From NCBI GenBank assembly GCA_964607015.1, contig CAZSHN010000001.1, forward strand, positions 1 through 58,668: 58,668 nt of DNA, read 5' to 3'. Origin of the DNA: an uncultured Candidatus Saccharibacteria bacterium (GTDB lineage Bacteria; Patescibacteriota; Minisyncoccia; Minisyncoccales; JAGGXC01). Positions within the stretch are counted from its first letter, which is position 1; every line of letters starts with the position of its first letter. The notes under the pieces were generated by a model. The model did no database searches and had not been told where the DNA came from. It saw nothing but the letters and a program-made list of their open reading frames with translations. This document shows, piece by piece, positions 7,006 through 53,700 of the stretch. The position numbers were made by a program, and so were the translations under genes.

Positions 7006-7010
7006 AATTA

Positions 7011-8170: not shown

Positions 8171-8182
8171 TTAAATAAATTA

Positions 8183-8458
8183 TTATTTTTTAATTTTAAA
8201 AGAATTAAATTCTCCTTCGTATTCTTTCCATTCTATTCGGAGATCATCAACTTTTGCCCAAGAAGGACCTTCCTTTGCCCATTTTATCAAACGAGCTAAA
8301 TTATTCTCTTCCCCTTCTGCTACAAATTCCACCCTACCATCTTCTAAATTTCTAACCCATCCAGTCAACTTTAAATGATTAGCTTCTTTTTTCGTGTTCG
8401 CTCTAAAAAACACTCCCTGAACCTTGCCTGAGACAAAAGCATGAATTCTCTTTTTCAT
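8183..8458 (-). CDS. acyP: Acylphosphatase
   Basis: 91 aa. VSGKVQGVFFRANTKKEANHLKLTGWVRNLEDGRVEFVAEGEE matches the acylphosphatase signatures (V.G.VQGV.FR ... G.V.N..DG.V). Confidence 0.9.
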   Translation of the reverse strand: MKKRIHAFVSGKVQGVFFRANTKKEANHLKLTGWVRNLEDGRVEFVAEGEENNLARLIKWAKEGPSWAKVDDLRIEWKEYEGEFNSFKIKK

Positions 8459-8463
8459 ACTAC

Positions 8464-9168: not shown

Positions 9169-9186
9169 TCCAAATATTTAATTAAT

Positions 9187-11877
9187 TTATTTATTTGCAG
9201 TAACTTTTTCTTTGTCTTTTATCTTCAAAATTTCCTTTGGTCCTTTGAAAGTAATTTCTCCTTTTTCTGCTCCAACGAATATCTGATCTCCTTCTTTAAT
9301 CTCTCTGGAGACTATTTTAAGGGCAAGAGGATCTAATACTTCTTGTTGAATTACTCTTTTAAGCGGCCTTGCTCCCAGATTAGGATCAAAACCTTTTTTG
9401 GCCAATAATTTCTTTGCTTCACTAGAAATCTTAAGCTTGAGGCTTTTCCTTTTTAATCTTTCTTTAACTTTCCTCAACTCAAGAGTAACAATTTTACTAA
9501 TTTCTTGCTTCCCTAAATAGTTAAAGATAACAATTTCATCAATCCTGTTTACAAATTCAGGGCGGAATTCTTTCTTTAAAGCCTCGGAAACCTTCTCTCT
9601 TAATTTTTCTTGACCTCCCTTGAAATCATCCTTGCCAAAACCAAGGCTGCTCATTTCTTTAATATTTTCGGAACCAACATTAGAAGTCATGATTAAAATA
9701 CAATTCTTAAAAGAAGCGGTTCTTCCTTTAGCATCAGTCAATCTTCCATCTTCTAATATTTGGAGAAGAATATTAAATACTTCTGGATGAGCTTTTTCAA
9801 TTTCATCTAAAAGAATAACTGAATAAGGTCTTCTTCTGATCTTGTCTGTTAATTGACCTCCTTCGTCATGACCGACATAACCAGGAGGAGAACCAATCAT
9901 TTTAGAGATAGCGTGCTTCTCCATGTACTCAGACATGTCCAATCTTACCAAGGCAGCCTCATCATTAAATAAAAATTCAGCCAAAGCTCTAGCAGTTTCT
10001 GTTTTACCTACTCCAGTAGGACCAAGAAACATAAAAGAACCTAATGGTTTATCTTCTTCTGAAATACCAGCTCGAGACCTGCGAATTGCCGAAGAGACTG
10101 CTTTAATTGCTTTCTCCTGACCAATAACTCTTTTCTTCAAAATCTTTTCCATCTTGGTTAATTTTTGAGCTTCGCTTTCCATCAGCTTGGTAACTGGAAC
10201 GCCAGTCCAGCGAGAAATAACTCTTGCAATATCTTCTTCGGTAACTTCTTGTTTTAATAAGCGATGTTTTTTCTGAACTTTAACCAATTTCCTCTCAGCA
10301 GAACTCAATTCTTTTTCTAATTCAGGTAATTTCCCATATTTTATCTCAGCTATTTTCTGAAGATCAGTGATCTGACCCATCTCAAGCTGAGAAGAAAGAG
10401 AATCTATTTTTTTCTTTGAGTCTTTAATTTTAGAAATCAACTCCTTCTCTACTCTCCATTTTGCTTCAATCTCTTCTGCTTTCTCTTTTAAATCAGCTAA
10501 ACTTCTTTTTACTGCCTTACATCTTCTCTTTGCCTTACTTTCTTTTTCATTTTTCAAGGCTTCTTTTTCAATCTCAAGCTTATTAATTTCCTGTTTTAAT
10601 TCATCTAACTCAGCGGGCTCTGATTCAATTTCAAGTCGAAGGCCGGAAGCAGCTTCATCCATTAAATCAACTGCTTTGTCTGGCAAGAACCTTCCTGCAA
10701 TATAGCGACGAGATAATTCTGCAGCTGCTATTAACGCTGAGTCTCTAATTTTAACTCCATGATGCACTTCATATTTTTCTTTCAAACCTCTCAAGATAGC
10801 CACTGCATCTTCAACAGAAGGCTCTGAAACATAGATTGGCTGAAACCTTCTTTCTAACGCTCCGTCCTTTTCAATATATTTCTGGTATTCTTTAGAAGTT
10901 GTAGCTCCAACTGCTCTTAATTCTCCTCTTGCTAAAGCAGGTTTAAGAAGATTGGAAGCATCTACTGCCCCTTCTGCTTTTCCTGCACCAACTAATGTAT
11001 GAAGCTCGTCAATGAAAAGAATATATTTATCTTTTGCTTTTCTAAGCTCTTTCAAAAAAACTTTAATTCTATTTTCAAATTCTCCTCTGAATTTGGTTCC
11101 CGCTACTAGAGCACCAATATCCAGAGAAATAAGTTGTTTATTTTTTAAACTTTCAGGAACAGACCCTTTTACTATTCTTTGAGCCAATCCTTCTACAATA
11201 GCAGTTTTTCCCACTCCTGCTTCTCCAATTAAAACAGGATTGTTTTTTGTTCTTCTTGATAATACCTGCATTAATCTTCTAATCTCTGACTCTCTTCCAA
11301 TGACTGGATCTAGTTTTTGCGCTTTAGCTTCTTTTGTTAAATTACGAGCATATTTTTCAATAACCTGATATTTTGATTCAGGATTAGGGTCAGTAATTTT
11401 CTGACCTCCTCTTATCTTTTTTAATGTTTCTAAAATGGAATCATAATCAAGCTCGTCGAAACTTAATCCTTCTCCAACTAACTTAGTTTTCTTTAAAACC
11501 TCTCCCGCCTTATTATCAAGCTGAACTAAAGCTAACAATAAATGTTCTACTGAAACATACTCATCCCCCATTTTCATCGCCTCTTGTCTTGCTTTTTCTA
11601 GAACACTGCCCATGTCTTGAGTTAAATAAAATTGTCCGATTCCCTGCGGCTTTGAGGATTGAGGAATATTTTCAACAGCTTTTTTGGTTCTTCTTTTTAA
11701 ATCTTCAACATCTACCCCTATCTCTTGAAAAGTAGTTAAAACTATTCCGCTTTTTTGAGAAAGTAACGCCAAAAGCAAATGCAAAGCATCTACTTGCTGA
11801 TGATTTTTCTTCTGAGCAATAGCACGAGCTTTCAATATCGCTTGTTGAGTTTTGTGAGTAAAATTAGAACCGTTCAT
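9187..11877 (-). CDS. clpB: ClpB disaggregase (two AAA+ modules with a middle coiled coil)
   Basis: 896 aa. It has a Clp-N repeat and two Walker A motifs ([15 protein letters not shown] and [15 protein letters not shown]). A long coiled-coil M-domain separates the two AAA+ modules, and the C-terminus has [10 protein letters not shown]. Confidence 0.95.
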
Positions 11878-11917
11878 AGTAATTACTTATTAACAAAATG
11901 AAGAACAAAGTCAAGCT

Positions 11918-13150
11918 TTACCTTTCTGCTAAAGTCACCTCTAAAATTTGCTCTTCTTCATCTCTTAAAATTTTCAATTCTACTTTATCTCCTGGATTAT
12001 AATCTAAAATTACTTCTGATAAAGGATTATCTGCAGCAATCTTTTGATCGTCAAACTGAAGAATAATATCATTTTGTCTTAACCCCACTTCTTCTGCTGG
12101 AGAATCAGAAAAGATTGGATCATCAATCAATTCTCCCTTTTTGTTTCTCCCAACCCAAGCTCCATAATCTACTGAAAGATCATATTCTTCTTTTAATTCT
12201 TCTGTTACAGGAGTGTAGTAGATTCCCAGGAAAGGATAACTAATTTCTCCTTTTTCTTTTACCTGTTCAATATCTCTTTTTGCTTTATTAATCGGAATAG
12301 CAAAGCTAATGTTTTGAGCTTCTAAAACTGTAGCAGTATTAATTCCAATCACTTCTCCTTTCAAGTTAAGCAAAGGACCACCTGAGTTTCCCTTATTAAT
12401 AGCTGCGTCTGTCTGAATAACATCTTCTATCGTTTCTACCATTCCTCCACCAGAAGCAGTCACCGCCCTTCCAAGACCAGAGATAACTCCTACAGAAACT
12501 GTATTTCTAAATTCAGATAAAGCGTTCCCGATAGCTACGACTGTTTGCCCAATTTTTAACTTAGAAGAATCTCCAAACTCTACAACTGGAAACTCTTTGT
12601 CAGACTCTTTAATTTGCAAAACTGCCAGATCTTGAATAGGATCTCTTGCTAAAACTTCTGTCGGAAACTTTTCTCCGTCTTTAGTAAAAACAGTATATTC
12701 AGCATCTTCATCCACAACCACATGTTTGTTTGTTAAAACTATCCCATCTTTTGAGATAATAAATCCGGACCCTCCTCCTACTTCTCTTTTCTCAGTTCCT
12801 TCTTCTCGATATTGAGGTATTTCAATATCAAGCCCTTCTCCAAAAGGGTTAATATAATATCTTTCAACAACCGGAACGTCCTTGGTAATTATAATACTGA
12901 CTACAGCAGGAGAAACTTTTTCTACTACTTCAATTACAGCTTGCTCTTGAGGAACGACAGGAGAATAATCTTCTCCTTCCTGATCGTCACCAGAAATATC
13001 AGGAAAATCAACTCCTAAATTAGAAAGGCTTTCTTTTATTTCTAAATAATAATAATTACTAGAAATAGCCCCAGCAAAGAAGCCAAACAAAGAAGAAATT
13101 AAAGCAACTATCACAATAATTATTAAAATTTTCCTCATTTCTTTTGGCAT
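11918..13150 (-). CDS. htrA: HtrA/DegP-family serine protease with a C-terminal PDZ domain
   Basis: 410 aa with a TM anchor. The catalytic triad context is intact (LTNKHVV, DLAVLQI, GNSGGPLLN). The PDZ-like tail is GAWVG...SPAEEVGLRQNDIILQFDDQKI. Confidence 0.9.
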   Translation of the reverse strand: MPKEMRKILIIIVIVALISSLFGFFAGAISSNYYYLEIKESLSNLGVDFPDISGDDQEGEDYSPVVPQEQAVIEVVEKVSPAVVSIIITKDVPVVERYYINPFGEGLDIEIPQYREEGTEKREVGGGSGFIISKDGIVLTNKHVVVDEDAEYTVFTKDGEKFPTEVLARDPIQDLAVLQIKESDKEFPVVEFGDSSKLKIGQTVVAIGNALSEFRNTVSVGVISGLGRAVTASGGGMVETIEDVIQTDAAINKGNSGGPLLNLKGEVIGINTATVLEAQNISFAIPINKAKRDIEQVKEKGEISYPFLGIYYTPVTEELKEEYDLSVDYGAWVGRNKKGELIDDPIFSDSPAEEVGLRQNDIILQFDDQKIAADNPLSEVILDYNPGDKVELKILRDEEEQILEVTLAER

Positions 13151-13230
13151 GATTCTTTAATATTAAGAGTTAAAGCTATTACTATTTTATCAATTTTGAC
13201 CTTAAAATCAATTTTTTTAAAATAGCTCAA

Positions 13231-14223
13231 TTACAATTTTTTTGCTTCGTTCCAGATACCAGGCATTCCTTTTTCCTCTTTTAGCCAATACCACCATTCA
13301 ACCCCCCAAAGATAAAAATGATCAATTCCTGTCCTTCTCGCAAAACTAATATTTTCTTTAAACTTCTCTAAATCCATAGTTTCCTTATGTTCTTCAAAAG
13401 GCAAATAAGGAATAAGAGTTGAACCCCATGGCTCTGCCTGTAACTCTCCACAAATAACCTCCTTGTCAAAAACCTTATCTATAATCTGGGCTTTCCGCCA
13501 ATAAAAGACAGGAGGAAAGGGATATTTAACATAATTATTAAACTCATTAAACCAAACCTTCCTATAAAGACTAAAACTAACTATGTCCCCTATCCTTGCC
13601 ACCTTAAACCAAAATCTGTTTGAGCCAGAATCGCTTATAATTATCGGACGATCTTCTTGATCAAGAAATCTAACTAACTCAACCTCTTTTCTCAAAAAAT
13701 CTTCTGTTATTTCTGGACATTCTCCAAAACTAAAGAAAGGTTCATTTTCAATTTGCCAGGCCCAAATAGAATCACTATCCCTGTATCTTAAAACAGTTTC
13801 TTCAATCACATCTAATACAGCTTGCTCCTGTTCTTTCTTGTCCAACCTTTCTGCCCATTCTGGAATATGACACTCCGGCCAACGAGGAACTTTTCTTCCT
13901 AAAGTAAAAACTAATTGAGCGTCTCTTTTCTCTGCTTCTTCAATCTGGAAATCAAGATCGTTGAAATAATAATTATTATCCTGAGGCTCGATCAGGTCCC
14001 AATAAGCAATAATTTTTAAATGATCAATTTTAAGATCATCTAAAATAGCTAAATAATTCTCTTTCCAATCTAGTCCCAAATCCTGGGATTGTTTCTGAGA
14101 AAAGGCAACTCCCCAAATAATACTTTCTGAAACAGGAGCCTTTCCAATAAAAAGCCAGGCAAAAAAGAGCAAAATAATAATTCCAATAATCCCAAGAAAT
14201 AATTTAATTTTGCTTTTAAACAT
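13231..14223 (-). CDS. Membrane-anchored clan GH-A (TIM-barrel) glycoside hydrolase
   Basis: 330 aa with an N-terminal TM. LKIIAYWDLIEPQDNNYYFNDLDFQIEEAEKRDAQLVFTLG resembles the GH5/GH42 N-terminal block. WAWQIENEP carries the NEP acid/base motif of clan GH-A. Confidence 0.6.
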   Translation of the reverse strand: MFKSKIKLFLGIIGIIILLFFAWLFIGKAPVSESIIWGVAFSQKQSQDLGLDWKENYLAILDDLKIDHLKIIAYWDLIEPQDNNYYFNDLDFQIEEAEKRDAQLVFTLGRKVPRWPECHIPEWAERLDKKEQEQAVLDVIEETVLRYRDSDSIWAWQIENEPFFSFGECPEITEDFLRKEVELVRFLDQEDRPIIISDSGSNRFWFKVARIGDIVSFSLYRKVWFNEFNNYVKYPFPPVFYWRKAQIIDKVFDKEVICGELQAEPWGSTLIPYLPFEEHKETMDLEKFKENISFARRTGIDHFYLWGVEWWYWLKEEKGMPGIWNEAKKL

Positions 14224-14224
14224 A

Positions 14225-15211
14225 TTATAAAGCTAGAAAGGCCAAGCCCATTACTATAAACCAAACTGCTAATGTTTTTTGAGCTACAACTCTTCTAGAG
14301 ACTTCTTCCTTCAATATATGAGGAAATTTAAAGAAAAAGATAAAAGCAAGGAAGATCAAGAATATATATTGAATACCAGACAAGGCATTAATTATTGGAA
14401 GAAAGATAGCCGGCGCTAAAAAGATTGCTCCATTTTGTAGAACTGTAGCTAGGGCAGCAGAGACTTTCCCAAAAAAGAAAGGATAAGCTACTTTCTTTAC
14501 TGTAAAACTTCTCTTGCCACTAAAGACCTTGCTTCTTACCTCAGCAGAGAAAAAGAAAACAAGAGCGGCAAGAAAAGTTCCAATTCTAATCCAAATAAAA
14601 CCAGTCCAGAATGGCAAGAAATTATAAACCATTTTAATAAGAACAAAAGCCAAGCCAAAGAAAAGAGAGGCAAAGAAAGCCATTTTAAGACTTCTCAGAG
14701 TAGCTCCTTTTTTCTCTTGGAGACTCAAGGCAATACTTCCTAGTATTAAAAATGCTAAAGCAAGAAAATTATAAAAAGTTAATGTTTCTTTTTCGAAACC
14801 AAGGTCCAAAGGAGCAAAAGTGAAGAGATAAATAAAACTTAAGGTAAACAAAGGAATGATTGCTCCAACGATCGGACCAATTCTTGAAACTTCAAACTCA
14901 ATAACTCCTTTGTAGTATAAATATAGGGCAAAAAGGAAAATGCTTCCTGCGATAAAACTTAAAATAATCAAAGGAAGGCTTGGAAGAAAAACAACCTCCG
15001 AAGGATCAGGAAAAATTCTTTGCAAGGGAGACAAAAAACCAAAAGAAACCAAGGATCCAATTGGGACCAAAACAAGAACAGCTAGAGAGAACGCTCCCGT
15101 ATAAAAAGAATACATTTTAGGAGATGGCAAAGGACCTCCTAAAATATACTTATCTAGAAAAGCAGATACCGCTAAAAGAATATAACTTAAAATTGCTAAA
15201 GTAATCCACAT
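14225..15211 (-). CDS. Polytopic membrane protein (about 10 TM; EamA/DMT-like permease guess)
   Basis: 328 aa, hydrophobic throughout, with two similar halves. It sits between two glycosidase genes with 1-nt gaps. Confidence 0.45.
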   Translation of the reverse strand: MWITLAILSYILLAVSAFLDKYILGGPLPSPKMYSFYTGAFSLAVLVLVPIGSLVSFGFLSPLQRIFPDPSEVVFLPSLPLIILSFIAGSIFLFALYLYYKGVIEFEVSRIGPIVGAIIPLFTLSFIYLFTFAPLDLGFEKETLTFYNFLALAFLILGSIALSLQEKKGATLRSLKMAFFASLFFGLAFVLIKMVYNFLPFWTGFIWIRIGTFLAALVFFFSAEVRSKVFSGKRSFTVKKVAYPFFFGKVSAALATVLQNGAIFLAPAIFLPIINALSGIQYIFLIFLAFIFFFKFPHILKEEVSRRVVAQKTLAVWFIVMGLAFLAL

Positions 15212-15212
15212 A

Positions 15213-16379
15213 CTAAATTTCTAATTTATTTTTCTTACAAATATCAGCATAATAAAACGCACTGGGACGAGGAATTCTTGCCATAGTATCATAATCAATC
15301 TCTACCAGACCAAACCTCGGCCAAAAACCTTTATCCCACTCCAAATTGTCCATTAAAGACCAATGCATGTAACCTCTGACATCTACTCCCTCCTCTATTG
15401 CTTTATGGACCCATTTCAAATGATCTTTAATAAACTTCTTCCTATTTTTATCTTCCGCATCGGCCAATCCATTCTCTGTAATATAGATTGGTTTTTTAAG
15501 AAAAGAGGCATCCTTCAGAACTTGATATATTCCCTCGGGATAAATCTCCCAACCTAAATCAGAAATAATTTTCTCTTTTGGTTTTTCTTCTTTTTTAAGC
15601 CAATTAAGTTTTATCCCCCTTCGAAAGTAGTAATTTAAACCAATAAAGTCCATGCAATCTTCTGTCTTTCTTAAAAAATAATCATTCCAAAAATAATCAG
15701 AAACACCTGCCAAAAAACCATTCACTGATCTTCCCTTGTAAGGATCAAAGAAAATATTGTGCTTAGAGATAGAAACCTTATTTTCTTCATCAGAACTCTT
15801 AATCACTGAATAGCTCTTATTATGAGCTTTAATTAAATTCCTAATTACTTTAAAGGTTTTCAAGAAACTCCTTTTTTGAGGCGGCCATTTTTTCTTAAGA
15901 TAAGAATTACCAGCATATACTAGTGGCTCATTAAGGGTTATCCAAAAATCAGAGTATCTTCCAAGTTCTTTTATTACCCTCTTAGCATAATTTAAAAAGT
16001 AATCTGATGATTTGGAATTAACCCATCCCCCTTTTTCTGCGAACCAAACAGGGACAGTCCAGTGATTTAAAGTAACGAAAGGAATAATTCCTCTTTCTCT
16101 CAAAGCTATTAATACTTTTTTGTAATGATCTATTTCTTTTTGATCAAACTCTCCTTCTTTAGGTTCTATTCTTGACCATTCAAGAGAAAAACGAAAAGCA
16201 TTTTGGTTTAATCTTTTAACTAAATCAAAATCATCTTCATATCTATTATAATGATCGCAAGCTTTTCCTGCCGGAAAAAAATAAGACCAATCACAATTAT
16301 CTATCCCTCCTTCTGTTTGATAGGAAGAGATAGAAGAACCCCATAAAAAACCTTTTGGAAAAGTTAAAAATTCCTCCAT
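15213..16379 (-). CDS. GH1-family beta-glucosidase/beta-galactosidase
   Basis: 388 aa. FLWGSSISSYQTEGG is the N-terminal GH1 signature, TLNEP holds the acid/base Glu and YITENG the nucleophile Glu. Confidence 0.9.
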   Translation of the reverse strand: MEEFLTFPKGFLWGSSISSYQTEGGIDNCDWSYFFPAGKACDHYNRYEDDFDLVKRLNQNAFRFSLEWSRIEPKEGEFDQKEIDHYKKVLIALRERGIIPFVTLNHWTVPVWFAEKGGWVNSKSSDYFLNYAKRVIKELGRYSDFWITLNEPLVYAGNSYLKKKWPPQKRSFLKTFKVIRNLIKAHNKSYSVIKSSDEENKVSISKHNIFFDPYKGRSVNGFLAGVSDYFWNDYFLRKTEDCMDFIGLNYYFRRGIKLNWLKKEEKPKEKIISDLGWEIYPEGIYQVLKDASFLKKPIYITENGLADAEDKNRKKFIKDHLKWVHKAIEEGVDVRGYMHWSLMDNLEWDKGFWPRFGLVEIDYDTMARIPRPSAFYYADICKKNKLEI

Positions 16380-16405
16380 TATCTATTTATAATAACATAA
16401 TTATA

Positions 16406-17902
16406 TCAATAACTTAAAAACTTGATCTCCTTCTTTTCCCAGACCCACCACGCAGAAAGGAAAAGCAAAGAATAAGAAATAACAAGCAAGGATAAGGGCA
16501 TACTATTCATTTCAATAGAAGAAAAAGAAAGTTTATAAAAGTAATTAATAACAAAAACAATGTAAGTTAAAAACATCCAGCAAATCCAAGAAAGAATCCA
16601 TCCTAAAAAAGGAAACAAGAGGCCAGAAAGAACAAATAAAAAACCAATTCCAACTAAGAAAGGTAAAATAGGAAGAACTAAAATATTAGTAAAAATAGTA
16701 ACTAAAGAAAAACTACCAAAATGATAAATTAATAAAGGAAAAACAAAAAGTTGAGCAGAAACAGTCATAGAAATAATTTTAACCAAACCAAAAAAATTAT
16801 TATTTAAAACCTTCTTGATTTTTTTCTCAAAGAAAGAAGAAAAAACAACTATTCCCAACACTGCTAAAAAAGAAAGTTGAAAACCAACGTCATACCTTAA
16901 AAGCAAAGGATTGAAAGTTAAAATTCCTGCAGCAGTAAAAACAATCACTCTCAAAGAAGAAGAACTCCTTCCTATCCTTTGAGCTAGGAGAATGAAACCA
17001 ACCATAATCCCTGCTCGAACAGCCGAAGCAGGCATTCCAATCATTACAATAAAAAGAACTAGAAAAATAATTGTAAGATAAAAAGAATATTTTCTATGCA
17101 ATCCAATGCCAATCAAAAAACTCATCAAAACAGAGGAAATAATTACTATGTGCATTCCAGAAATAGCGGTAATGTGTCTTAACCCAGAGACACTTAGTTT
17201 ATCCTTTAAGCTTTCAGGCATTCTACTTTTATCTCCGAGAATTAAAGAACCTAAGATGTAACTTTGAGGAGGAGAAAGATTTCTATGAATTACCTTTCTC
17301 ATTTTATCCTTTAACAAATATATTTTAGCTAATAATAAACCTTCTTCTCCAGTTGATGCTTTCTCTACCTTCGGCCAATAAGAAACAGAGTAAATTCCTT
17401 CTTTGGCCAAATACTTTTCATAATCAAAATCATCAAAAACCGGAGGTTTCTTTATCTCCCCTTTTATTATAAGCTTATCTCCATAATTATAATCAGAATA
17501 ACGCCCAACAGTAATTAAAATCTTACCTTTTACTTTCTCGTCAAAAACTTTTACAACATCAACTTCTATCTTCGTATTATCTTCTCTAACATCAGGCTCA
17601 TCTGAAACCACTCCTTCTAAAATAACTTCTCCTTGATCGCTATATTTGTTCAGCCCACTTTCAGATATTTTCATTTCTTTTGCTTGATAAACTAGAACTC
17701 CTGTTAGAACGAAAATAAGGCAAAAAGAAAAAACAATTATCTTTCTTTTCTTTTTAAATAAATAAAGAATAAAGAATAAAAATATTAACGGAAAAATAAA
17801 AAATGCCAGCTTGGTTAACTGACTAACAGAAAGAAAAGAGCTTATTCCTATTCCGACTATAAAAGAAATGCAAAAGAAATAAGATATTTTAGAAAGACTC
17901 AT
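16406..17902 (-). CDS. comEC: ComEC/Rec2 DNA-uptake channel protein (no C-terminal metallo-beta-lactamase domain)
   Basis: 498 aa. An N-terminal OB-like DUF4131 region (ILEGVVSDEPDVREDNTKIEVDV) is followed by the polytopic competence domain with SGLRHITAISGMHIVII. The protein ends right after the membrane domain. Confidence 0.85.
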   Translation of the reverse strand: MSLSKISYFFCISFIVGIGISSFLSVSQLTKLAFFIFPLIFLFFILYLFKKKRKIIVFSFCLIFVLTGVLVYQAKEMKISESGLNKYSDQGEVILEGVVSDEPDVREDNTKIEVDVVKVFDEKVKGKILITVGRYSDYNYGDKLIIKGEIKKPPVFDDFDYEKYLAKEGIYSVSYWPKVEKASTGEEGLLLAKIYLLKDKMRKVIHRNLSPPQSYILGSLILGDKSRMPESLKDKLSVSGLRHITAISGMHIVIISSVLMSFLIGIGLHRKYSFYLTIIFLVLFIVMIGMPASAVRAGIMVGFILLAQRIGRSSSSLRVIVFTAAGILTFNPLLLRYDVGFQLSFLAVLGIVVFSSFFEKKIKKVLNNNFFGLVKIISMTVSAQLFVFPLLIYHFGSFSLVTIFTNILVLPILPFLVGIGFLFVLSGLLFPFLGWILSWICWMFLTYIVFVINYFYKLSFSSIEMNSMPLSLLVISYSLLFLSAWWVWEKKEIKFLSY

Positions 17903-24576: not shown

Positions 24577-25236
24577 TTAATCCCTATATATTTTTTTTAA
24601 TTTTTTTCGCGCGTCACAAAATCTTAGTATAGCAGTATTGAATCCTCCTACTGCAAACAATATTGTCATCCATCCTAGAAAAGTAAACGTTGGAGAGTTG
24701 GAAAAAATAACTATTTCCTCCCACCAGATAGAGTTCAAGACAAGTACGATTATCATAATAAGTAATCGCCAAACTCTTCCAAGTCCTCCGTAGTTTCTTG
24801 ATAAACCAACTGTTTTTGACAATGATCCAAGATTCGAGGTTAAAGAAACTCCTCCTACAGCAAAAGCCACTATAGGCCATCTAACAAATCCTCCTAATCC
24901 AATTGAGAGAATTAAGGCCAAATCAGCAACACGATCTAAGCTGTGATCAAGATAATCTCCTGACTTATTCTCAACGTTTCTTATTCTCGCCAAATTACCA
25001 TCTAAAGCATCAAGAAAAGAACTTAATGCTAATGCTATAGCTGCAAAAAAAAGCATAATTCTAAACTGATAAGTGCCAGCAGCATAAATAAAAAAAGAGG
25101 CAACAAAGGCAAGAAAAAGAGAAATTATTGTTATTCCATCGGGCGTAATAAAAGAAGGTACTTTTCTGCTGACCTTCTCTAAAACAATATCGCTTTTTTC
25201 TCTTGATGACGCAATACTTTCTTTTTCTTTAGACAT
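24577..25236 (-). CDS. CDP-alcohol phosphatidyltransferase family enzyme
   Basis: 219 aa, polytopic. The signature D-x2-DG-x2-AR-x8-G-x3-D-x3-D is seen as DALDGNLARIRNVENKSGDYLDHSLDRVAD. Confidence 0.85.
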   Translation of the reverse strand: MSKEKESIASSREKSDIVLEKVSRKVPSFITPDGITIISLFLAFVASFFIYAAGTYQFRIMLFFAAIALALSSFLDALDGNLARIRNVENKSGDYLDHSLDRVADLALILSIGLGGFVRWPIVAFAVGGVSLTSNLGSLSKTVGLSRNYGGLGRVWRLLIMIIVLVLNSIWWEEIVIFSNSPTFTFLGWMTILFAVGGFNTAILRFCDARKKLKKIYRD

Positions 25237-27737: not shown

Positions 27738-28247
27738 TTATTTTTTTATAAAATTATTAAAAATAACAATAACAATAAAAGCAGACAACACTCCTACTAA
27801 AAATCCTCCTAATATATCTGAAGGCCAATGAACCCCGGAATAAATTCTGCTTACTGCTATCCCAAAAGAACAAAGGAAAAAGAATAATCCTAACTTTTTA
27901 TTATAAGAAAAAATAACAGCCGAGAGCGCAAAAAAGAATGAAGTATGAGCAGAAGGAAAAGAATTACTTTTAAGCTGATCTACTAAAAGATTAACATTGT
28001 TTTCAACAAAAGGACGAGGCCTTTCCCAAATAATTCTAATTAACTCTGTTATTCCTCTAGACAAAAAAGCAGCTGAAAAAGCCATAAGAAAAACTCTCCA
28101 GCGCTTATTAAAGTTTAATAATAGAAAAATTAATAAAAAGGCAACCAGAATAAAAGGAAGATAGTGTGCTAAAAAAACTCCAGCACTATCAAGGTAAAAA
28201 TTCTCTAAAGCAATGTTATTAATTTTTTTGAATAAAAAAGCATCCAT
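27738..28247 (-). CDS. PAP2-family lipid phosphate phosphatase (BcrC/undecaprenyl-diphosphatase-like)
   Basis: 169 aa, polytopic. The three PAP2 motifs are present: KxxxxxxRP (ELIRIIWERPRP), SFPSAH, and SRIYSGVHWPSD. Confidence 0.85.
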   Translation of the reverse strand: MDAFLFKKINNIALENFYLDSAGVFLAHYLPFILVAFLLIFLLLNFNKRWRVFLMAFSAAFLSRGITELIRIIWERPRPFVENNVNLLVDQLKSNSFPSAHTSFFFALSAVIFSYNKKLGLFFFLCSFGIAVSRIYSGVHWPSDILGGFLVGVLSAFIVIVIFNNFIKK

Positions 28248-28922: not shown

Positions 28923-29876
28923 TCAAATTTTATTAACCTTAAAATCAATATTTTTTTTATTTCTTGCTTTCGTAGAATAGTATTGAGTTAATTGTTTAGC
29001 AGCCTTTATTACGCTATCAGAAATCTCTTTCGAGCCATAATTTCTAATTAAAGTAACTGGTCCAGGATATTCTTTCATTTCAATTAAAATATCTTCTTTC
29101 TGGGCAAGATTGCCAATCTTTTCATTTTCTTCTTCGTCTCTGCCCACAATTATAACTATCTCCTCTTCCCAAAAATGCCGGCCATATTTTAATAATTCAA
29201 TATCATTTCCATTACAATCAGGATAATTTTCAAAAAGATCTTTTAATCTTTTCCCAAACTCTGGGTCAGTTAATAAGCAACCTCCTGCAGGGCTTGGATA
29301 ATGCTCCACTCCAAGTTTATTTGCTAGCTCCATTTGTTTCTTTCTTTCTCTTCCTGAAAAATCAAGAAGATCGTCTCTATCAACAATTCCTTCTCTTTCT
29401 GGAATTGTTTCATCAAGCAATCTCGCTGAAAGAGGTCGAAGAAGATGTCCTTTGAGAGAAGATTCTTTTTCGATTAAAGAAAGGGCTTTTTTATTCTGAG
29501 ACATTGGTCTTTGTCCCAAAACCTCTCCTGTAGCAACAAAATCAAAACCCATTTTCTTCATAATCTCTTTTGCTTTTTTTAGCATAAAAAGATGACAATC
29601 AATGCAAGGATTCATTGATTTTCCGTAACCATGCTTTGGATTTTTAACCAACCTTAGATGTTCTTTAGAAAAATCAACTACCATCAAATCAATATCATTC
29701 TTCTCGACTGATTCTATGGCCTGTTTTGCGCTAAAAAAATAGCTTTTGAAGGTCAAAGCTTTTACTTTTATTCCTTGTTTCTCTAAAATCTTTACAGCTA
29801 GAATAGAATCCAGCCCACCGGAAAATAAAACTAGTGCTTTTGCTTTTTTGCTCATATTATTATCCCAGTCTATCAT
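28923..29876 (-). CDS. PP-loop ATP-pyrophosphatase, ThiI/MnmA-like predicted tRNA thiolase
   Basis: 317 aa. It has the PP-loop LVLFSGGLDS, NPCIDCHLFMLKKA, ATGEVLGQRPMSQ (like the ThiI GEsLGQvaSQ block) and PAGGCLLTD. Exact specificity cannot be determined from sequence by eye. Confidence 0.6.
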   Translation of the reverse strand: MIDWDNNMSKKAKALVLFSGGLDSILAVKILEKQGIKVKALTFKSYFFSAKQAIESVEKNDIDLMVVDFSKEHLRLVKNPKHGYGKSMNPCIDCHLFMLKKAKEIMKKMGFDFVATGEVLGQRPMSQNKKALSLIEKESSLKGHLLRPLSARLLDETIPEREGIVDRDDLLDFSGRERKKQMELANKLGVEHYPSPAGGCLLTDPEFGKRLKDLFENYPDCNGNDIELLKYGRHFWEEEIVIIVGRDEEENEKIGNLAQKEDILIEMKEYPGPVTLIRNYGSKEISDSVIKAAKQLTQYYSTKARNKKNIDFKVNKI

Positions 29877-29894: not shown

Positions 29895-29919
29895 ATAAAA
29901 AAGCACTCAAAAGAGTGCT
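29895..29919 (-). terminator. Intrinsic terminator ending the CofD-like to GGGPS gene string
   Basis: On the minus strand: AGCACTC-TTTT-GAGTGCT followed by TTTTTTATTT. Confidence 0.7.
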
Positions 29920-29924
29920 ATATT

Positions 29925-30671
29925 TTATTTATATTCTCTTACTGCTTTAACGATCTCTTTAAACTGATCCTTCTCTTTCTTCTCAACTACATTGCCAGTA
30001 ACGATGATATCTGCTCCTGCTTTTAGCTTCTCTAAGGCTGTTTCACGATTTTTGATTCCTCCTCCTACAATCAAGGGAATACCTGTGTTTTCTTTAATCG
30101 TTCTAATCATCTCATTAGAAACTGGTTCAGGAGAGCCTGATCCCGCTTCGAGATAAAGAAGTTTTGCTCCGAAATACTTTGCAAAGAATGCATACTGAAG
30201 AGCTTTACGACAATCATCTCTTCTTAACAAATCGGCTTTGCCTATCTCGCCTACTTTCATGCCAGGGCTAATTATAAGATAACCCATTGAAATTGGCTCT
30301 AAGCCCGCTGTTTTTATGTGCAACGTTCCTTTTGCTGCTTCTCTCACTATATAGCGAGGATCATTCGAATTAAGCAAGCTCATAAAAAGAACTCCGTCAG
30401 CTAAAACACTTAGCGCAGATGCTCCTGAAGGAAAGAGGATAATTGGAATAAACTTTTTAATTTTCTTTCTTATTCCTATTATTGTTTGTTCCACCTTAGA
30501 CTCTTCAGCCCCAGAAGATCCTCCGATCAGAATAACATCGGTTCCTGTAAGATATGAAAAAAGAGCAATCTCACCCGCAGCTTCTGATGATTGTTTGTCA
30601 GGATCAATAAGAGTAAAATGCAGCTTCTCTTTTCTTTCTATTCTTCTAGATAAATTTTCCCATGTTTTCAT
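29925..30671 (-). CDS. Geranylgeranylglyceryl / heptaprenylglyceryl phosphate synthase (GGGPS/PcrB family)
   Basis: 248 aa. It aligns by eye along its length with B. subtilis PcrB and archaeal GGGPS: HFTLIDPDK, DVILIGGSSG, LYLEAGSGS, IPLIVGGGIKN, GADIIVTGNVVE. Confidence 0.85.
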   Translation of the reverse strand: MKTWENLSRRIERKEKLHFTLIDPDKQSSEAAGEIALFSYLTGTDVILIGGSSGAEESKVEQTIIGIRKKIKKFIPIILFPSGASALSVLADGVLFMSLLNSNDPRYIVREAAKGTLHIKTAGLEPISMGYLIISPGMKVGEIGKADLLRRDDCRKALQYAFFAKYFGAKLLYLEAGSGSPEPVSNEMIRTIKENTGIPLIVGGGIKNRETALEKLKAGADIIVTGNVVEKKEKDQFKEIVKAVREYK

Positions 30672-31492
30672 ACTATACCCCCTATTAAAAAGGAAATTAA
30701 TGCTATAATCATTCCTAATTTTACAATGTTTTTTGCTTTTTTTGCATTTTTAAAAGAAGCAAAAATTGAAATTAAGAATGCAACGTCTGCTAATAATACT
30801 ACCAGAAAATACTCTCTTCCAAAAATCCCTTGAATCCAAGGATAAAAAGAAAATATTATCGCAGCTAATAGAAAAACTGAAGAAAAAAGCAATGTTCTTT
30901 CTGCTCCTCTCGTTATTGGCAAAGTTTTCCTTTCGCCTTTGTCGCCTTCTAGATCTTCAACATCTTTAATCATTTCTCTTCCCAGATTAGCTAGAAAAGC
31001 AAGAAGAGCCAAGAAAGCAGTATTATAGATTACTCCGATAGAAGCTCCGCCAAACAAAAACAGCGAACCAACTAAATAGCTTATAGCAAGGTTTCCTATA
31101 AAACCTCTTTCTTTTAATCCTTTCTCGTAAGAAATTAAGACAGCAACGCTTATCAATGCAATCAAGAAACAGATCCAGTTAACAAAGAATGCTAATCCGA
31201 GCCCAAGCAAGAAAGACATTAAGGCAAAAATACTTGTTTCTGATAAGCTTAATCTTCCTGAAGGAATAGGTCTTTTTGGATGAGCGACAAGATCAACTTT
31301 CCAGTCAAAGTAATCGTTTATAGCATTACCTCCTGCTATTATAAAAAAAGCAGCTAATGACGCTACGATGACAGATGGAAGATAACTGAAGGTTGCTCCT
31401 TCTACGAGAGAACCAATTATAACTGCAACACCTCCCATTAAACAGTTAAGAGGGCGGGATAATTCTAGATATGCTTTTATTTTTTCTTTCAT
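30668..31492 (-). CDS. UbiA-superfamily prenyltransferase, digeranylgeranylglyceryl-phosphate-synthase-like
   Basis: 274 aa, about 8 TM. The first Asp-rich motif is GGNAINDYFDWKVDLVAHPKRPIPSGRLS. The second is KDVEDLEGDKGERKTLPITRG, close to the archaeal DGGGPS pattern kDieDiegD...G..TlPi. It overlaps the GGGPS start by 4 nt. Confidence 0.8.
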   Translation of the reverse strand: MKEKIKAYLELSRPLNCLMGGVAVIIGSLVEGATFSYLPSVIVASLAAFFIIAGGNAINDYFDWKVDLVAHPKRPIPSGRLSLSETSIFALMSFLLGLGLAFFVNWICFLIALISVAVLISYEKGLKERGFIGNLAISYLVGSLFLFGGASIGVIYNTAFLALLAFLANLGREMIKDVEDLEGDKGERKTLPITRGAERTLLFSSVFLLAAIIFSFYPWIQGIFGREYFLVVLLADVAFLISIFASFKNAKKAKNIVKLGMIIALISFLIGGIV

Positions 31493-31544
31493 TCTTTCAC
31501 CTCTATATTTATTTATAAAGTACTAATCTCTTTTAACTCATTAT

Positions 31545-32180
31545 TTATAACTCTGTCAAGATGCTTCTTAACTCTTCTAAATCCTTAATTGAAAAATCAA
31601 TTTCTTTAACGTCTGATTGGTCTTTATACTTCCCCTCTCCCCTATTTATTCTAACTGTTGTCACTTCTGGAAAATATTTTTTAATTTCAGATAGTACTTC
31701 CGGACTATCATCAATGAAAATTAATTTTTCTTCTCCGCCTACGACTTCTTTTAAGGCATTGGTTTTGTCATTACTTTTTGTAACAAATACTTTTTCAAAA
31801 TAATCTCCGATTCCTGATCTCTTTATTTTCTCTCTGGAAAAAGAACCGTCATCTCCTCCATAAGAAATAATATAAAAATCGAAACGATCTTTGAATTCTT
31901 CTAAAAAAGAAACAACGTCAGAATAAACAAAATCAGGAAATCGTTTCATGATTTCTTCGGAAGCTTCTTCCATCTCTTTAACAGAAACTTCTGGTTTCTC
32001 TTTGTGAATAATTTCAAACTGTTTCTTTGGATTATAAGTCTTCCCTTCTTTTTTAGACTCTTGATAACTTTTATTAAAAAGATCACAGCTAACACCCAGG
32101 GAATCAAAATAATCCTTTATCTCTAAATAAAGTCTTTTAGCGGAAAAGAGAGTATGATCAAAATCAAAGACTATTTTCAT
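31545..32180 (-). CDS. HAD-superfamily hydrolase (phosphatase-like)
   Basis: 211 aa. Motif I is KIVFDFDHTLF, and a late acidic motif is LIFIDDSPE. Confidence 0.75.
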   Translation of the reverse strand: MKIVFDFDHTLFSAKRLYLEIKDYFDSLGVSCDLFNKSYQESKKEGKTYNPKKQFEIIHKEKPEVSVKEMEEASEEIMKRFPDFVYSDVVSFLEEFKDRFDFYIISYGGDDGSFSREKIKRSGIGDYFEKVFVTKSNDKTNALKEVVGGEEKLIFIDDSPEVLSEIKKYFPEVTTVRINRGEGKYKDQSDVKEIDFSIKDLEELRSILTEL

Positions 32181-32187
32181 AAAAATT

Positions 32188-33441
32188 CTACTTTTTCTTA
32201 ATTACACTCTGAGCTTTAGTGTAAAAAGTTGTATTGTCCTCTATGTTATTAAGAACAATAGAATGAGGTCCAATTTTACAATTGCCACCAATTAAAACTC
32301 CTGGCATTAAAGAAACATGAACTCCGATCTTTGTTTCGTTGCCAACTATAGCTCCCAACTGATTCAATCTGGTGTTGACTGCTTTTCCTTTCACAACAGA
32401 TTCTATTTCTTCTCTATCAATTCTAATATTAGCAGTGATAGTTCCTGCTCCTATCCTGCAGCCTCTACCAAAAATAGAATCTCCAAAATAACCAGAATGA
32501 GTATGAGCATTTCTCTGAAATATAGAGCGAGTTACCTCAGAAAAACCACCAATCAAACAATCCTCTTCAATATTAGAATATTCCCTAATTAAAGCATTGT
32601 TTCCCACTATAGAATTGTCTCCAATATAACAAGGACCCTTAACAACAGCTCCTTCAAATATTTTTACATTCTTTCCTATAAACACCTTTCCTGCAACCTT
32701 TGCTGAATCAGATATTTCAGCTGACTTATCAATATTTTTCTCTAAAAAATTATCAAACAGATAATTCTTCATATCAAACAAATGCCAAGGATATTTTAAA
32801 GAAAAAGTGCTTTTATCAGTTTTTACTATCCTTACGTCCTTTTCTTTTGCATACAAAAGTAACGCATCTTCAAGAGAGTACATATGGGCCGGAACTTTTT
32901 TAAGATATTCAAAGAACTCTTTTGGTAAAAAATAAGTTCCTACTACTTTCAAATTAGAAGGCTCTTTTCCTTTTTCTGGCTTCTCTATTAAGCCTAGAAC
33001 CTTATCTTCTTTAACCTTTAATATCCCATAAAGCCAAGGATTGTTAGTTTCTCCTGCCAACAATATCAACTTTCTTTTTTCTTTTTTGAATTTATCAAGA
33101 ATTAAATCAATATGTTCTTTTATGTCTATTCTTTCTGCATTAAGAACGAAAAATTGATCATCTACAAAATCTTTAGCTCTGAGAATTGCATCTCCTGTTC
33201 CTTTTGGTTCAGGTTGAATAACATACTTAACAGGAATTTTAGCATTGTAATCAGCAAGCTCTCTTTCAGCCTCTTTCCCAGGACCTTGAATAATTATTGC
33301 TTCTTTTATTCCTTTTTCTTCTAACCCCTTAATAAGCCAATAAATCAAGGGTTTCCCCATAATTTTAATAAGAGATTTATGGTAGCCGTTAATTGGCCAA
33401 AATCTTGAAGAAGCACCTGCTGATAAAATTACTGCTTTCAT
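32188..33441 (-). CDS. Bifunctional sugar-1-phosphate nucleotidyltransferase / left-handed beta-helix acyltransferase (GlmU-like, archaeal-type)
   Basis: 417 aa. The N-terminus MKAVILSAGASSRFWP is the nucleotidyltransferase G-x-G-x-R loop. The C-terminal third is made of hexapeptide repeats (IGDNSIVGNNALIREYSNIEEDCLIGGFSEV..., IGAGTITAN, IGVHVSLMPGVLIGGNCKIG). Confidence 0.8.
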   Translation of the reverse strand: MKAVILSAGASSRFWPINGYHKSLIKIMGKPLIYWLIKGLEEKGIKEAIIIQGPGKEAERELADYNAKIPVKYVIQPEPKGTGDAILRAKDFVDDQFFVLNAERIDIKEHIDLILDKFKKEKRKLILLAGETNNPWLYGILKVKEDKVLGLIEKPEKGKEPSNLKVVGTYFLPKEFFEYLKKVPAHMYSLEDALLLYAKEKDVRIVKTDKSTFSLKYPWHLFDMKNYLFDNFLEKNIDKSAEISDSAKVAGKVFIGKNVKIFEGAVVKGPCYIGDNSIVGNNALIREYSNIEEDCLIGGFSEVTRSIFQRNAHTHSGYFGDSIFGRGCRIGAGTITANIRIDREEIESVVKGKAVNTRLNQLGAIVGNETKIGVHVSLMPGVLIGGNCKIGPHSIVLNNIEDNTTFYTKAQSVIKKK

Positions 33442-50707: not shown

Positions 50708-53700
50708 TTATATCTTCTTAATTGCGAGCCACAAATCTTTTTGTTCAAATTTTGTTTCTCTTTCAGCTCCAAATGCTAATTTTTCCTTCTTTCCAAATTC
50801 TATTTTTTCTGCCTTGGCTTCTTTTAATATAACTTCTTCGTTTCTTGTCAAAACATCATTAAGTTCTTTATCTCCGGAAAAATAAATAACAATCTTGTGT
50901 CTTGGTTTGTACCCTGCTTTCTTTCTCATTGATTTTATATAACGAAGGACTTCTCTTACCGTCCCCTCTTCTCTTAACTTTGGAGTAATAACAAGATCTA
51001 ATTCTATTTCTTCTTTAATATTCTCAAAAGAGACTTCTTTAACATTCACTTCTTCTTTAATTAAATCAATCAATTCTTTTTCTTTTAAATCTAATTTCTT
51101 TTTATTGATCTTCAAGGAAGCAAGAGGTTGTCTTACTTTAATCCCGGCATCTGCTCTTTTGTTTAAAGTCAGAGCAACTATTTTTCTAATATCACTCATC
51201 TTTCCTTCCAATTCTTTATCTATTAACTCTTTAACAGGACCGGGATAATCACACAAATGAACTGACTCTTCCTTTCCTTTATAAGAAGGAAGTTCTCTGT
51301 AAATACTTTCGGCAAAGAAAGGAGTAAAAGGAGCTATTAGCTTAGTTAATTCTATTAAAGTATAATTTAAAATCTTCGTAGCCTCTTCTTTTTCTTTCTC
51401 GCTTTCTGGTTTTTGAAATCTTGTTCTTGATCTCCTGATATACCAATTAGATAAATCATCAACAAAACCTTCAAAAAGTCTGGCAGCATCTACTATTTGA
51501 TATTCTTCCATTTTTTTATCTATCTCCCCTTTCAGACTTTCTAATTTAGAAATAATCCATTTATCTAACAAATTATTAGGATTAATATCTAGATCAATTT
51601 CTTCTTTATCAGAATACATAGATAAAAACCTAAAACTATTCCATAAAGTACCAAAGAACTTTCTAGAAAGATCTTTAAGTTCTTTAAAGTCAAATCTTTT
51701 AGGCTCTCCCGCAGAATTAATAGTATAGAAATAGAATCTTGCACAATCAACTCCAAAATCTCTTGCTACTTCTTGAGGGTCAACAATAATTCCTCTTGAC
51801 TTAGACATCTTTCTCCCTTTTGCATCTAAAACTATTCCAAGAGAAATCACATTCTTGTAAGAGATTCCGAGTCCAAGCAAAGTAGAGATAGCAAGCAATG
51901 TGTAGAACCACCCCCTGGTCTGATCCACTCCTTCGCAAATAAAGTCAGCTGGGAAAAATTTATTGTCATCAATCATTTCTTTATTCTCAAAAGGATAATG
52001 AAGCTGACCATAAGGAACAGATCCAGAATCAAACCAGCAATCTATCACTTCAGAAACCCTCTTCATAGAAGATCCGCATTTAGGACAATTAAATTCAACT
52101 TCATCCACGTATGGTCTGTGAAAATTAAGATTTCCTTTTTTGTCATAAGGGAATTTTTTAAACTTGATTTTCCTTATCTCATTATTGCTAGGAACAAGTT
52201 CAGAAAACTGTTCCATTGTTTCTTTGTTATTCAAACCTTTAATAGCGGCCTGTAAAAGCCAAAGGGGACCTCCATGACTAACTATTAAAATATTCTTTCC
52301 TTTATATTTCTTTTCTAGCTCTTTTATAAAATCAAGGGTTCTTAACTTAATCTCATTAAAACTCTCTCCCCCTTCAGGAGGATTGTTAAATCCTTTTTCT
52401 GTTCCTAAGAATTCTTTTTTCCAATTCTTAACAGGCTTCCCATCAAATTCACCAAAATCCATTTCTCTTAATCTCTCGTCAAAATTTATCTTCACTCCTA
52501 TCTCTTTAGAAGCCATTTCTGCTGTTTCTTTTGTTCTTAATAAATCAGAGGAGAAAATTAAATCTATCTTTTCTTCTTTTAAATTTTTAACCAATTCAGA
52601 TACTTCCCTTCTCCCTTTAGCAGTAAGAGGACAATGTCTTTTTTCTGGCCACGAACAAAGCCTTTCTTCTTCCTGAGTACAAGAGTGGCCATGCCTCATT
52701 AAATAATAATTATTACTGCTAAATTCTTGTGAAGATAAATCTTCTCTAGATCCAATTACTTCAAGATGGTCACAATCAGAACATTTCCATACAGGCAGTG
52801 GAGTTCCCCAATACCTTTCTCTGGTTAAATTCCAATCTTTAATTCCCCTTAACCACTCACCAAATCTTCCCTCTTTTAAATGTCCCGGAATCCAATTAAT
52901 CTTCTCGTTATTAGCCAGTAAATCATCTTTTACTTTTTGCATATTAACGAACCAGCTTTTTTTAGCATAGTAAAGAAGAGGCGTATCGCATCTCCAGCAA
53001 AAAGGATAATCATGAACACATTCTTCTTCCTTTAGAATTAAATCATTCTTTTTCAACTCTTCAATAATTAAGGAATCAGCACTTTTTACAAATTTGCCTG
53101 CCCACTTTTTTACTTCTTTTTTAAATTTCCCTTCGTCATCTATTGTAACTAAAACAGGTAAATCATTTTCTTTTCCAATATTCATATCATCTTCACCAAA
53201 AGCAGGTGCTACATGAACTAATCCTGTTCCTTCTTCTAAGGAGACGAAGTCTGCTCCAATTACTTTATAAATATTCTTTTCTCCTTTCGCTGATTTAATA
53301 TTAAATAATGGCTCATACTCTACTCCAATCAAATCCTTTCCTTTTATTCTATCTACTATTTCTCCCTCAATTCCTGAATTTTCCAATCTTCCCTTAGCTA
53401 CAACTAAATTCTCTCCATTTACTTTAACTTTGTAATAAATAAATTCAGGATTAACAGCAATAGCTACGTTAGCAGGTAAAGTCCAAGGAGTAGTAGTCCA
53501 AGCAACCAAATAAGAATTTTTAAGATTAGACTTTCCTTTAACTTTAAATTTAACGTAAATAGCTGGATCTTTTGTTTCCTTATATCCTTGAGCTACTTCA
53601 TGAGAAGAAAGAGACGTTCCACATCTCGGACAATAAGGAATAACTTTATAATCTTCATAAAGAAATCCTTTCTCCCAGATTCTTTTCAATGCCCACCAAA

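Follow-up and report, generated by a model that had tools for sequence, protein, structure and literature searches.

The minus strand of a 58,668-nucleotide stretch of contig CAZSHN010000001.1, analysed as a whole and hereafter called the window, carries two overlapping open reading frames (ORFs) that both start with ATG, one at 30668..31492 (274 aa), encoding a UbiA-fold membrane prenyltransferase, and one at 29925..30671 (248 aa), encoding a member of the PcrB/TIM-barrel family. We consider it likely that they form a bicistronic cassette, probably translationally coupled, for an active group-II geranylgeranylglyceryl phosphate (GGGP) synthase (GGGPS; the 248-aa protein) and an active digeranylgeranylglyceryl phosphate (DGGGP) synthase (DGGGPS; the 274-aa protein), the enzymes predicted to form the first and the second ether bond of an archaeal-type lipid. 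A first-pass annotation had singled out this pair as archaeal-type steps in bacterial-looking DNA; the positions, the 4-nt overlap and the motifs that it quoted for both proteins were recovered exactly in the ORF list, the sequence and the translations.

Identity of the two enzymes

The 248-aa protein contains the motifs LIDPDK, GGS, LYLEAGSG, GGGI and GADIIVTGN and matches the Pfam PcrB family (PF01884) with 187.7 bits (cut-off 23.9, E=2.8e-55). Its earlier assignment to GGGPS/PcrB was borne out by the GGGP equivalog model TIGR01769 (230.2 bits against a cut-off of 161.55) and by NF003198 (276.5 against 247); TIGR01768 was passed as well (202.9 against 113.25). The model for heptaprenylglyceryl phosphate synthase, NF003197, gave 52 bits and did not reach its cut-off of 260. 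Among known structures, the group-IIa GGGPS of Thermoplasma acidophilum (6NKE) and Methanothermobacter thermautotrophicus (4MM1) scored 200 and 184 bits, the group-IIb GGGPS of Flavobacterium johnsoniae (4JEJ) 125 bits, and the group-I structures (the GGGPS of Archaeoglobus fulgidus and the PcrB of Bacillus subtilis; 1VIZ/2F6U) 56 bits. By these comparisons the protein is a group-II GGGP synthase and not a Bacillus-type heptaprenyl enzyme. A Bacillus PcrB-style heptaprenyl lipid, which the first-pass annotation had offered as an alternative, was accordingly rejected on the NCBIfam and PDB scores.

Residues of known function were taken for both enzymes from a review (PMC9385802) and mapped through HMMER alignments; the Tyr/Tyr/Glu set of GGGPS was mapped by motif, since the numbers given there for the M. 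thermautotrophicus enzyme disagree with the PDB chain numbering. The Mg2+/diphosphate residues D23 (AfD13/MtD25 in the A. fulgidus and M. thermautotrophicus enzymes) and S52 (MtS54) are invariant in the alignment (66 of 66 sequences). Conserved too are Y131, Y173 and E175, which orient glycerol-1-phosphate (G1P), and the phosphate-binding loops beta-alpha 6, 7 and 8, represented by G177-S178-G179, G203-G204-G205 and T225-G226, the last followed by N227. At the position that limits chain length in group II, L87 of the window enzyme takes the place of V86 in the M. thermautotrophicus enzyme; the residue here is Leu or Ile, with a bulk at least that of the Val in the C20-specific M. thermautotrophicus enzyme, and L87 may therefore be taken as an indirect hint of a C20 chain.

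The window enzyme aligns over its full length with the archaeal group-IIa GGGPS (6NKE, 4MM1 and Thermoplasma volcanium 6JO3) at 184-200 bits, sharing with them the Mg2+/diphosphate residues, the Tyr/Tyr/Glu set, the three phosphate-binding loops and the hydrophobic limiter; unlike them, it is hosted by a bacterium. At position 227 it has the Asn of group I, where group II usually has Thr. In addition, a Glu replaces W141, the aromatic anchor of the hexameric M. thermautotrophicus enzyme, so that a dimer seems more likely than a hexamer.

The 274-aa protein carries two Asp-rich motifs, NAINDYFDWKVD...RPIPSG and KDVEDLEGDKGERKTLPI, and matches Pfam UbiA with 136 bits (cut-off 34.2, E=1.8e-39). 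Of the NCBIfam models, the DGGGPS equivalog NF009521 fits it best, with 286.1 bits; NF009523 gave 235.9 bits, below its cut-off of 269. Scores against the DGGGPS models range from 186 to 286 bits, compared with 82 for EboC, 74 for ChlG, 45 for haem O synthase, 37 for UbiA and 34 for MenA, which leaves every subfamily other than DGGGPS more than 200 bits behind the best model. The sole strong PDB match is the DGGGPS of Methanocaldococcus jannaschii (6M31; 161.9 bits, E=1.8e-46, residues 2-273), with a chlorophyll synthase second at 48.7 bits, and the named database neighbours include archaeal DGGGPS. On this evidence the protein is DGGGP-synthase-like, as the first-pass annotation had proposed; the affiliation with quinone, haem O or chlorophyll enzymes that would have spoken against that proposal did not emerge from the scores.

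The functional residues agree with this assignment. Motif 1 (N59, D63, D67), motif 2 (Y122, K127) and motif 3 (D177, D180, D184) correspond to N62 and D66-x3-D70, Y125-x4-K130, and D180, D183 and D187 of the M. jannaschii enzyme, and F145 is present too; every residue found important by mutagenesis in M. jannaschii DGGGPS is kept. The likeness to 6M31 extends over the full length and includes the tunnel residues I29 and F148 of that structure; the two proteins differ in that their identity is modest and that the tunnel residue S171 is Ala in the window protein.

Members of the UbiA superfamily are often mis-assigned (PMC6431249), and the cut-off of NF009521 is narrowly missed; on these grounds the protein might be a quinone, haem O, chlorophyll or other aromatic prenyltransferase to which PcrB is adjacent by accident. 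The quinone, haem and chlorophyll identities were nevertheless ruled out by the NCBIfam scores (no other family above 82 bits) and the PDB scores (162 against 49 bits), and the retention of the mutagenesis-supported residues, together with a pairing with GGGPS that is conserved in two gene orders, makes an aromatic substrate highly improbable.

At the junction, the minus strand reads ...GGTATAGTATGAAAACATGG, within which lies GTATGA. The stop codon of the UbiA gene (TGA) and the start codon of the PcrB gene (ATG) share the ATGA at 30668..30671 (minus strand), so that the genes overlap by 4 nt, and translation of the two is probably coupled through this overlap. A Shine-Dalgarno-like GAGGTGA, presumably functional, is found 4 nt before the UbiA ATG (31497..31503, minus strand). 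Beginning 5 nt past the PcrB stop codon is a terminator-like hairpin with a 7-bp stem, a 4-nt loop and a subsequent T-run (29902..29919, minus strand), identified by consensus match only; terminator-like sites number 11 in 8 kb, against 4.0 +/- 2.0 in shuffled sequence. With one signal before UbiA and the other after PcrB, the unit looks bicistronic. No promoter could be called: the scan gave 26 sites where 26.4 are expected by chance in DNA this rich in AT.

Conservation, integrity and origin of the cassette

The first-pass annotation had described the rest of the window as bacterial, and this description holds: the window encodes FtsZ, FtsA, ComEC, YbeY, ClpB, RecO, SmpB, IF3, L20, a bacterial-type TopA, LepB (signal peptidase I) and Pth, as well as a tmRNA, and its GC content is 0.30-0.35 throughout. 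For the UbiA protein, the closest relatives that bear a name are Parcubacteria, and three window proteins were compared with a GenBank Ca. Parcubacteria metagenome-assembled genome (identities of 62% for TopA, 64% for an M16 peptidase and 54% for leucyl-tRNA synthetase). Together, these relationships would assign the window to the Parcubacteria within the candidate phyla radiation (CPR).

Prevalence was estimated from one scan of species-representative genomes and one of metagenome contigs, each with two peptide patterns, which yields lower bounds: at least one named Parcubacteria genome in the former and at least three Parcubacteria-clade loci in the latter. The block (HAD)-UbiA-PcrB-ThiI-like-Sua5-PAP2-TopA recurs in at least eight other assemblies from different samples (loci L001, L002, L085, L086, L088, L168, L169 and L170), usually with CofD-like and GlmU genes before it and CDP-alcohol transferase, Pth, LepB and histidyl-tRNA synthetase genes after it. 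Five of these loci (L001, L085, L168, L169 and L170) have the identical -4 overlap. Wherever a Parcubacteria-clade locus allowed a check, UbiA and PcrB lie next to each other, and this holds for two gene orders and two contexts. Type A, the arrangement of the window's family, runs from UbiA to PcrB with the -4 overlap; type B runs from PcrB to UbiA, the two being about 35-50 nt apart (L003, L005 and L089), and has different neighbours, among them a trypsin-like protease and an aminotransferase, yet is still monophyletic with the window's type.

Across successively more distant relatives, the identity of the pair (DGGGPS/GGGPS) drops from 87/71% to 55/50% and then 48/46%, and that of TopA from 83% to 71% and then 62%. 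The pair thus declines in the same order as housekeeping genes, which fits vertical inheritance within the Parcubacteria lineage. GC content at third codon positions (GC3) is 0.28 for GGGPS and 0.23 for DGGGPS, compared with 0.19-0.26 in 12 neighbouring genes. Both genes are under purifying selection: ratios of nonsynonymous to synonymous substitution (dN/dS) against the sister genome are 0.12 for DGGGPS and 0.15 for GGGPS, with 0.07-0.10 for TopA, Sua5 and GlmU. Among the 13 GGGPS and 11 DGGGPS members of the Parcubacteria clade, no more than one departs from any given mapped functional residue. Catalytic-residue exceptions, such as a D180H in one DGGGPS, are confined to single members and fall at three positions, and the tunnel-lining positions 26 and 145 show a conservative change in one clade member each.

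Archaeal-type genes in a bacterial contig raise the question of an assembly or binning chimera, and decay in a relative (L087, described below) that of an inactive relic. The contig is bacterial and not chimeric, as shown by synteny in independent assemblies, by GC and GC3 values that match those of the neighbours and by the identity gradient; the first-pass annotation had asked for an archaeal chimera to be ruled out. Catalytic residues are intact and dN/dS is 0.12-0.15. A chimera or relic is therefore hardly conceivable as an explanation of the pair.

One relative departs from this pattern. In L087 (JGI 3300027690, Ga0209164_1000210, 8756..16819), an MFS/UNC-93 transporter gene replaces the UbiA and HAD genes, the CDP-alcohol transferase gene is frameshifted within its DxxDGxxAR motif, and the retained GGGPS carries E175D, the sole such change among the 66 sequences. 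This apparent co-decay, a single case in which an assembly error is possible, hints that UbiA, GGGPS and the CDP-alcohol transferase work together.

Trees were built by neighbour joining (NJ) with bootstrap, a distance-based method, from a sample with no Cloacimonetes sequence. The Parcubacteria DGGGPS form a clade with 96% bootstrap, and in the concatenated pair all Parcubacteria are monophyletic with 100%; FCB-type bacterial DGGGPS (KSB1, Calditrichaceae and others; FCB denotes the Fibrobacteres-Chlorobi-Bacteroidetes group) form a separate clade, also with 100%. The GGGPS clade of the window has 67% support and is placed among Thermoplasmatota sequences, with the M. thermautotrophicus and a bacterial Acidiferrales sequence falling outside at 96%. 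The closest sequences outside CPR are Thermoplasmata for GGGPS (48-53% identity) and Methanocellales and Thermoplasmata for DGGGPS (45-46%). Many Thermoplasmatota loci have GGGPS immediately after DGGGPS, and the same gene order with a -4 overlap occurs in 20 of 27 archaeal cassettes. Within the available flanks of the Methanocellales loci no GGGPS was found, although their DGGGPS is equally similar.

The window cassette thus resembles the Thermoplasmatota one in gene order and in the position of its GGGPS among Thermoplasmatota branches, and differs from it in an identity of only 45-53% and in flanking genes that are all bacterial. Naming a donor from the single-gene NJ trees was abandoned, because support for joining DGGGPS to Thermoplasmatota is 23% and the Methanocellales matches are equally similar. 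The direction of transfer we infer as archaeon to bacterium: most likely, the cassette entered once, in a single old acquisition from an archaeon with a Thermoplasmatota-type DGGGPS-to-GGGPS cassette, and was then passed on vertically with one rearrangement. A Thermoplasmatota-type donor is a supported hypothesis, not a result.

Predicted pathway and alternative products

From what is known of the two enzyme families, we infer substrates and product, and we propose possible downstream steps, as follows. The soluble TIM-barrel GGGPS would bind G1P through the loops GSG (177-179), GGG (203-205) and TGN (225-227), hold Mg2+-geranylgeranyl diphosphate (GGPP) with D23 and S52, and make the first ether bond, converting G1P and GGPP to GGGP. 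The nine-helix UbiA-fold enzyme would then add a second geranylgeranyl group at C2 by means of N59/D63/D67 and D177/D180/D184, converting GGGP to DGGGP, the predicted product of the pair. DGGGP is the unsaturated archaetidic-acid core of archaeal lipids. Coupled translation may serve to coordinate the soluble enzyme with the membrane one.

A downstream step might involve either of two syntenic genes near the pair, both of which the first-pass annotation had named and Pfam recovers. The CDP-alcohol phosphatidyltransferase at 24577..25236 (minus strand, 219 aa; PF01066, E=3.3e-13), a candidate for a head-group step, has the full DxxDGxxAR...G...D...D motif. Its best NCBIfam model is archaetidylinositol-phosphate synthase (AIPS; NF040950) with 107.8 bits, below the cut-off of 180; the runners-up are bacterial phosphatidylinositol phosphate synthase (46 bits) and PgsA (22 bits). 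Its homologues beyond its own lineage are at most 41% identical, the nearest with an organism name, from Methanococcoides, being 30%; the homologue search gave own-lineage relatives and weak archaeal matches only, which does not establish an archaeal origin. The gene is syntenic in L001, L085, L086 and L170, and this conserved synteny suggests a link to the UbiA-PcrB pair. The PAP2 lipid phosphatase at 27738..28247 (minus strand, 169 aa; 78.7 bits, E=4.3e-22) is UppP/PgpB-like, with weak NCBIfam matches to undecaprenyl-diphosphatases. It keeps its place three genes downstream of the pair and is syntenic in all type-A loci; a role for it in an ether-lipid pathway is speculative.

Several observations weigh against the interpretation of the pair as an active archaeal-type cassette of Thermoplasmatota-like origin. 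The score of the 274-aa protein against NF009521 is 10 bits under the equivalog cut-off of 296, and the grouping of the Parcubacteria clade with Thermoplasmatota has only 23-29% support, in NJ trees only. The pathway appears to be decaying in L087 and thus to be dispensable in at least one lineage. Finally, the annotated ORFs of the window (58.7 kb) include no G1P dehydrogenase, polyprenyl diphosphate synthase (GGPP synthase), CarS/CdsA or geranylgeranyl reductase; for the G1P dehydrogenase and CDP-archaeol synthase steps, the first-pass annotation had already noted their absence from the window. This last point is not decisive, since the Cloacimonetes pair yields archaeal-type lipids in Escherichia coli without an added G1P dehydrogenase and bacterial CdsA is able to replace CarS (PMC7852524, PMC6431249).

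The same enzymes could instead make a minor or specialised lipid, such as a glycolipid or a lipid-carrier anchor, one of another chain length or one with a glycerol-3-phosphate backbone. Bacillus PcrB, for example, makes a low-abundance heptaprenylglyceryl lipid. The lack of CDP-archaeol synthase, G1P dehydrogenase and saturase genes in the window would agree with such a product, as would the PAP2 phosphatase, which is always nearby and could dephosphorylate it, and L087, which apparently gets by without the second step. Moreover, lipidomics of CPR-rich samples gave only fatty-acid-based lipids for CPR bacteria (PMC7242380). Against these points stand the properties of the enzymes themselves: the GGGPS belongs to group II rather than to PcrB group Ib (T. 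acidophilum GGGPS 200 bits, B. subtilis PcrB 56), the Leu or Ile at its limiter position equals or exceeds in bulk the Val of the C20-specific enzyme, and its G1P-orienting Tyr/Tyr/Glu set is conserved, while the presence of a dedicated second prenyltransferase, together with a CDP-alcohol transferase in synteny, is more in keeping with a phospholipid pathway. A minor or specialised product is therefore unlikely in our judgement, if still a serious alternative.

Another possibility concerns the source of the substrates. Isoprenoid diphosphates, G1P or lyso-ether lipids might be imported from an archaeal host and rebuilt into diether lipids. Some Parcubacteria-related bacteria parasitise methanogenic archaea (PMC12281837), the cassette is of archaeal type, no precursor-supply genes were seen in the window, and CPR genomes generally lack complete lipid pathways (PMC7242380). 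Nothing in the present data, however, points to a host, and the chemistry would equal that of a cassette supplied by the cell itself, from which salvage differs only in substrate source; we consider it very unlikely.

Bacterial GGGPS/DGGGPS pairs are already known and are established in the FCB group; the first-pass annotation was correct in noting similar pairs in some bacteria (PMC7852524, PMC6431249). In the debate on the lipid divide, the natural evidence for mixed membranes comes mainly from such pairs and has so far been FCB-based. The Ca. Cloacimonetes/FCB pair described by Villanueva et al. in 2021 likewise brings both archaeal ether-bond genes into bacteria, with no egsA or carS nearby; in Cloacimonetes the two genes are co-localised, and the Cloacimonetes pair works in E. 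coli (PMC7852524). In contrast to the window pair, with its affinity to Euryarchaeota/Thermoplasmatota, the bacterial clade was tied to TACK archaea (Thaumarchaeota, Aigarchaeota, Crenarchaeota and Korarchaeota) in that study (PMC7852524). Co-localisation within bacteria was reported there as seemingly restricted to Cloacimonetes, with one Parcubacteria genome mentioned (PMC7852524), and our literature search found no further treatment of the Parcubacteria pair beyond that mention. The PcrB of Bacillus and Staphylococcus (group Ib) shares the Pfam family, the TIM-barrel fold and the G1P acceptor with the window GGGPS; it differs in matching it with only 36-56 bits, and Bacillus has no partner DGGGPS.

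New here are the lineage-wide overlapping cassette in Parcubacteria, in a clade apart from FCB, the match of its architecture to the Thermoplasmatota cassette and a candidate linked head-group enzyme. The Parcubacteria pair could thus serve as a second, independent test case, one that is a compact two-gene unit and easy to express and assay. CPR genomes lack complete pathways for fatty-acid lipids, and the origin and type of CPR lipids have been called elusive (PMC7242380). Because the lipid source of CPR bacteria is an open question, interest would be high if lipid chemistry showed archaeal-type membranes (PMC7242380). The boldest version, namely that a family-level Parcubacteria lineage builds a substantial part of its membrane from archaeal-type diethers by means of a cassette taken over whole from a Thermoplasmatota-like archaeon, independently of FCB, perhaps with AIPS-like head-grouping and possibly an archaeal host, is one we hold to be distinctly unlikely; if true, it would mean that the lipid divide was crossed naturally a second, independent time, by a bacterium possibly without any fatty-acid lipid synthesis.

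Flanking genes and other features of the window

The pair is flanked upstream by a HAD-family hydrolase (31545..32180, minus strand, 211 aa; Pfam Hydrolase, 26.9 bits), for which a PDB search gave nothing useful. Downstream, at 28923..29876 (minus strand, 317 aa), is a protein in which Pfam recognises a ThiI-like PP-loop ATPase and an NFACT-R_2 domain. This union of a ThiI/MnmA/QueC-like ATPase with an RNA-binding domain follows immediately downstream of the pair in every type-A locus. In L018 (uncultured bacterium SRR24791474_concoct_33, 6627..13636), the two flanks are fused in a single 519-aa HAD-ThiI-like/NFACT-R_2 ORF, whose N-terminal half is 41% identical to the HAD protein of the window and whose C-terminal half is 66% identical to the ThiI-like one. 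Given this fusion, the UbiA-PcrB pair appears to have been inserted between two genes that are linked in function.

L018 also has a DGGGPS-like UbiA, which differs from that of the window (39% identity, 252 bits to NF009521), in a genome without PcrB. An unannotated 297-aa ORF begins 1 nt past the stop codon of this UbiA gene and has only a faint cis-isoprenyl transferase match (E=0.0035); a PAP2 gene comes after the two.

The GlmU-like protein at 32188..33441 (minus strand) passes the archaeal-type model TIGR03992 (305 bits against 292) and stays far under the bacterial GlmU cut-offs, which makes it another archaeal-flavoured gene in the same block. The minus strand carries nearly all window genes longer than 90 aa, and the GC skew is strongly negative all along the window except in two places, about 25.5-27.6 kb and about 55.8-57.7 kb, which hold the plus-strand genes. 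An isoleucyl-tRNA-synthetase-like protein of 1147 aa (50708..54151, minus strand) contains a His_Phos_1 domain (histidine phosphatase, PGAM-like) at residues 483-644, an unusual insertion or fusion that splits the class-I catalytic domain in two. Finally, the region 13231..16379 (minus strand) comprises a glycosidase of glycoside hydrolase family 1 (GH1; 15213..16379) and, after it, a pair of ORFs, each of about 330 aa, one with a weak GH42 match and the other with no Pfam match, and may represent a small glycan-use cluster.

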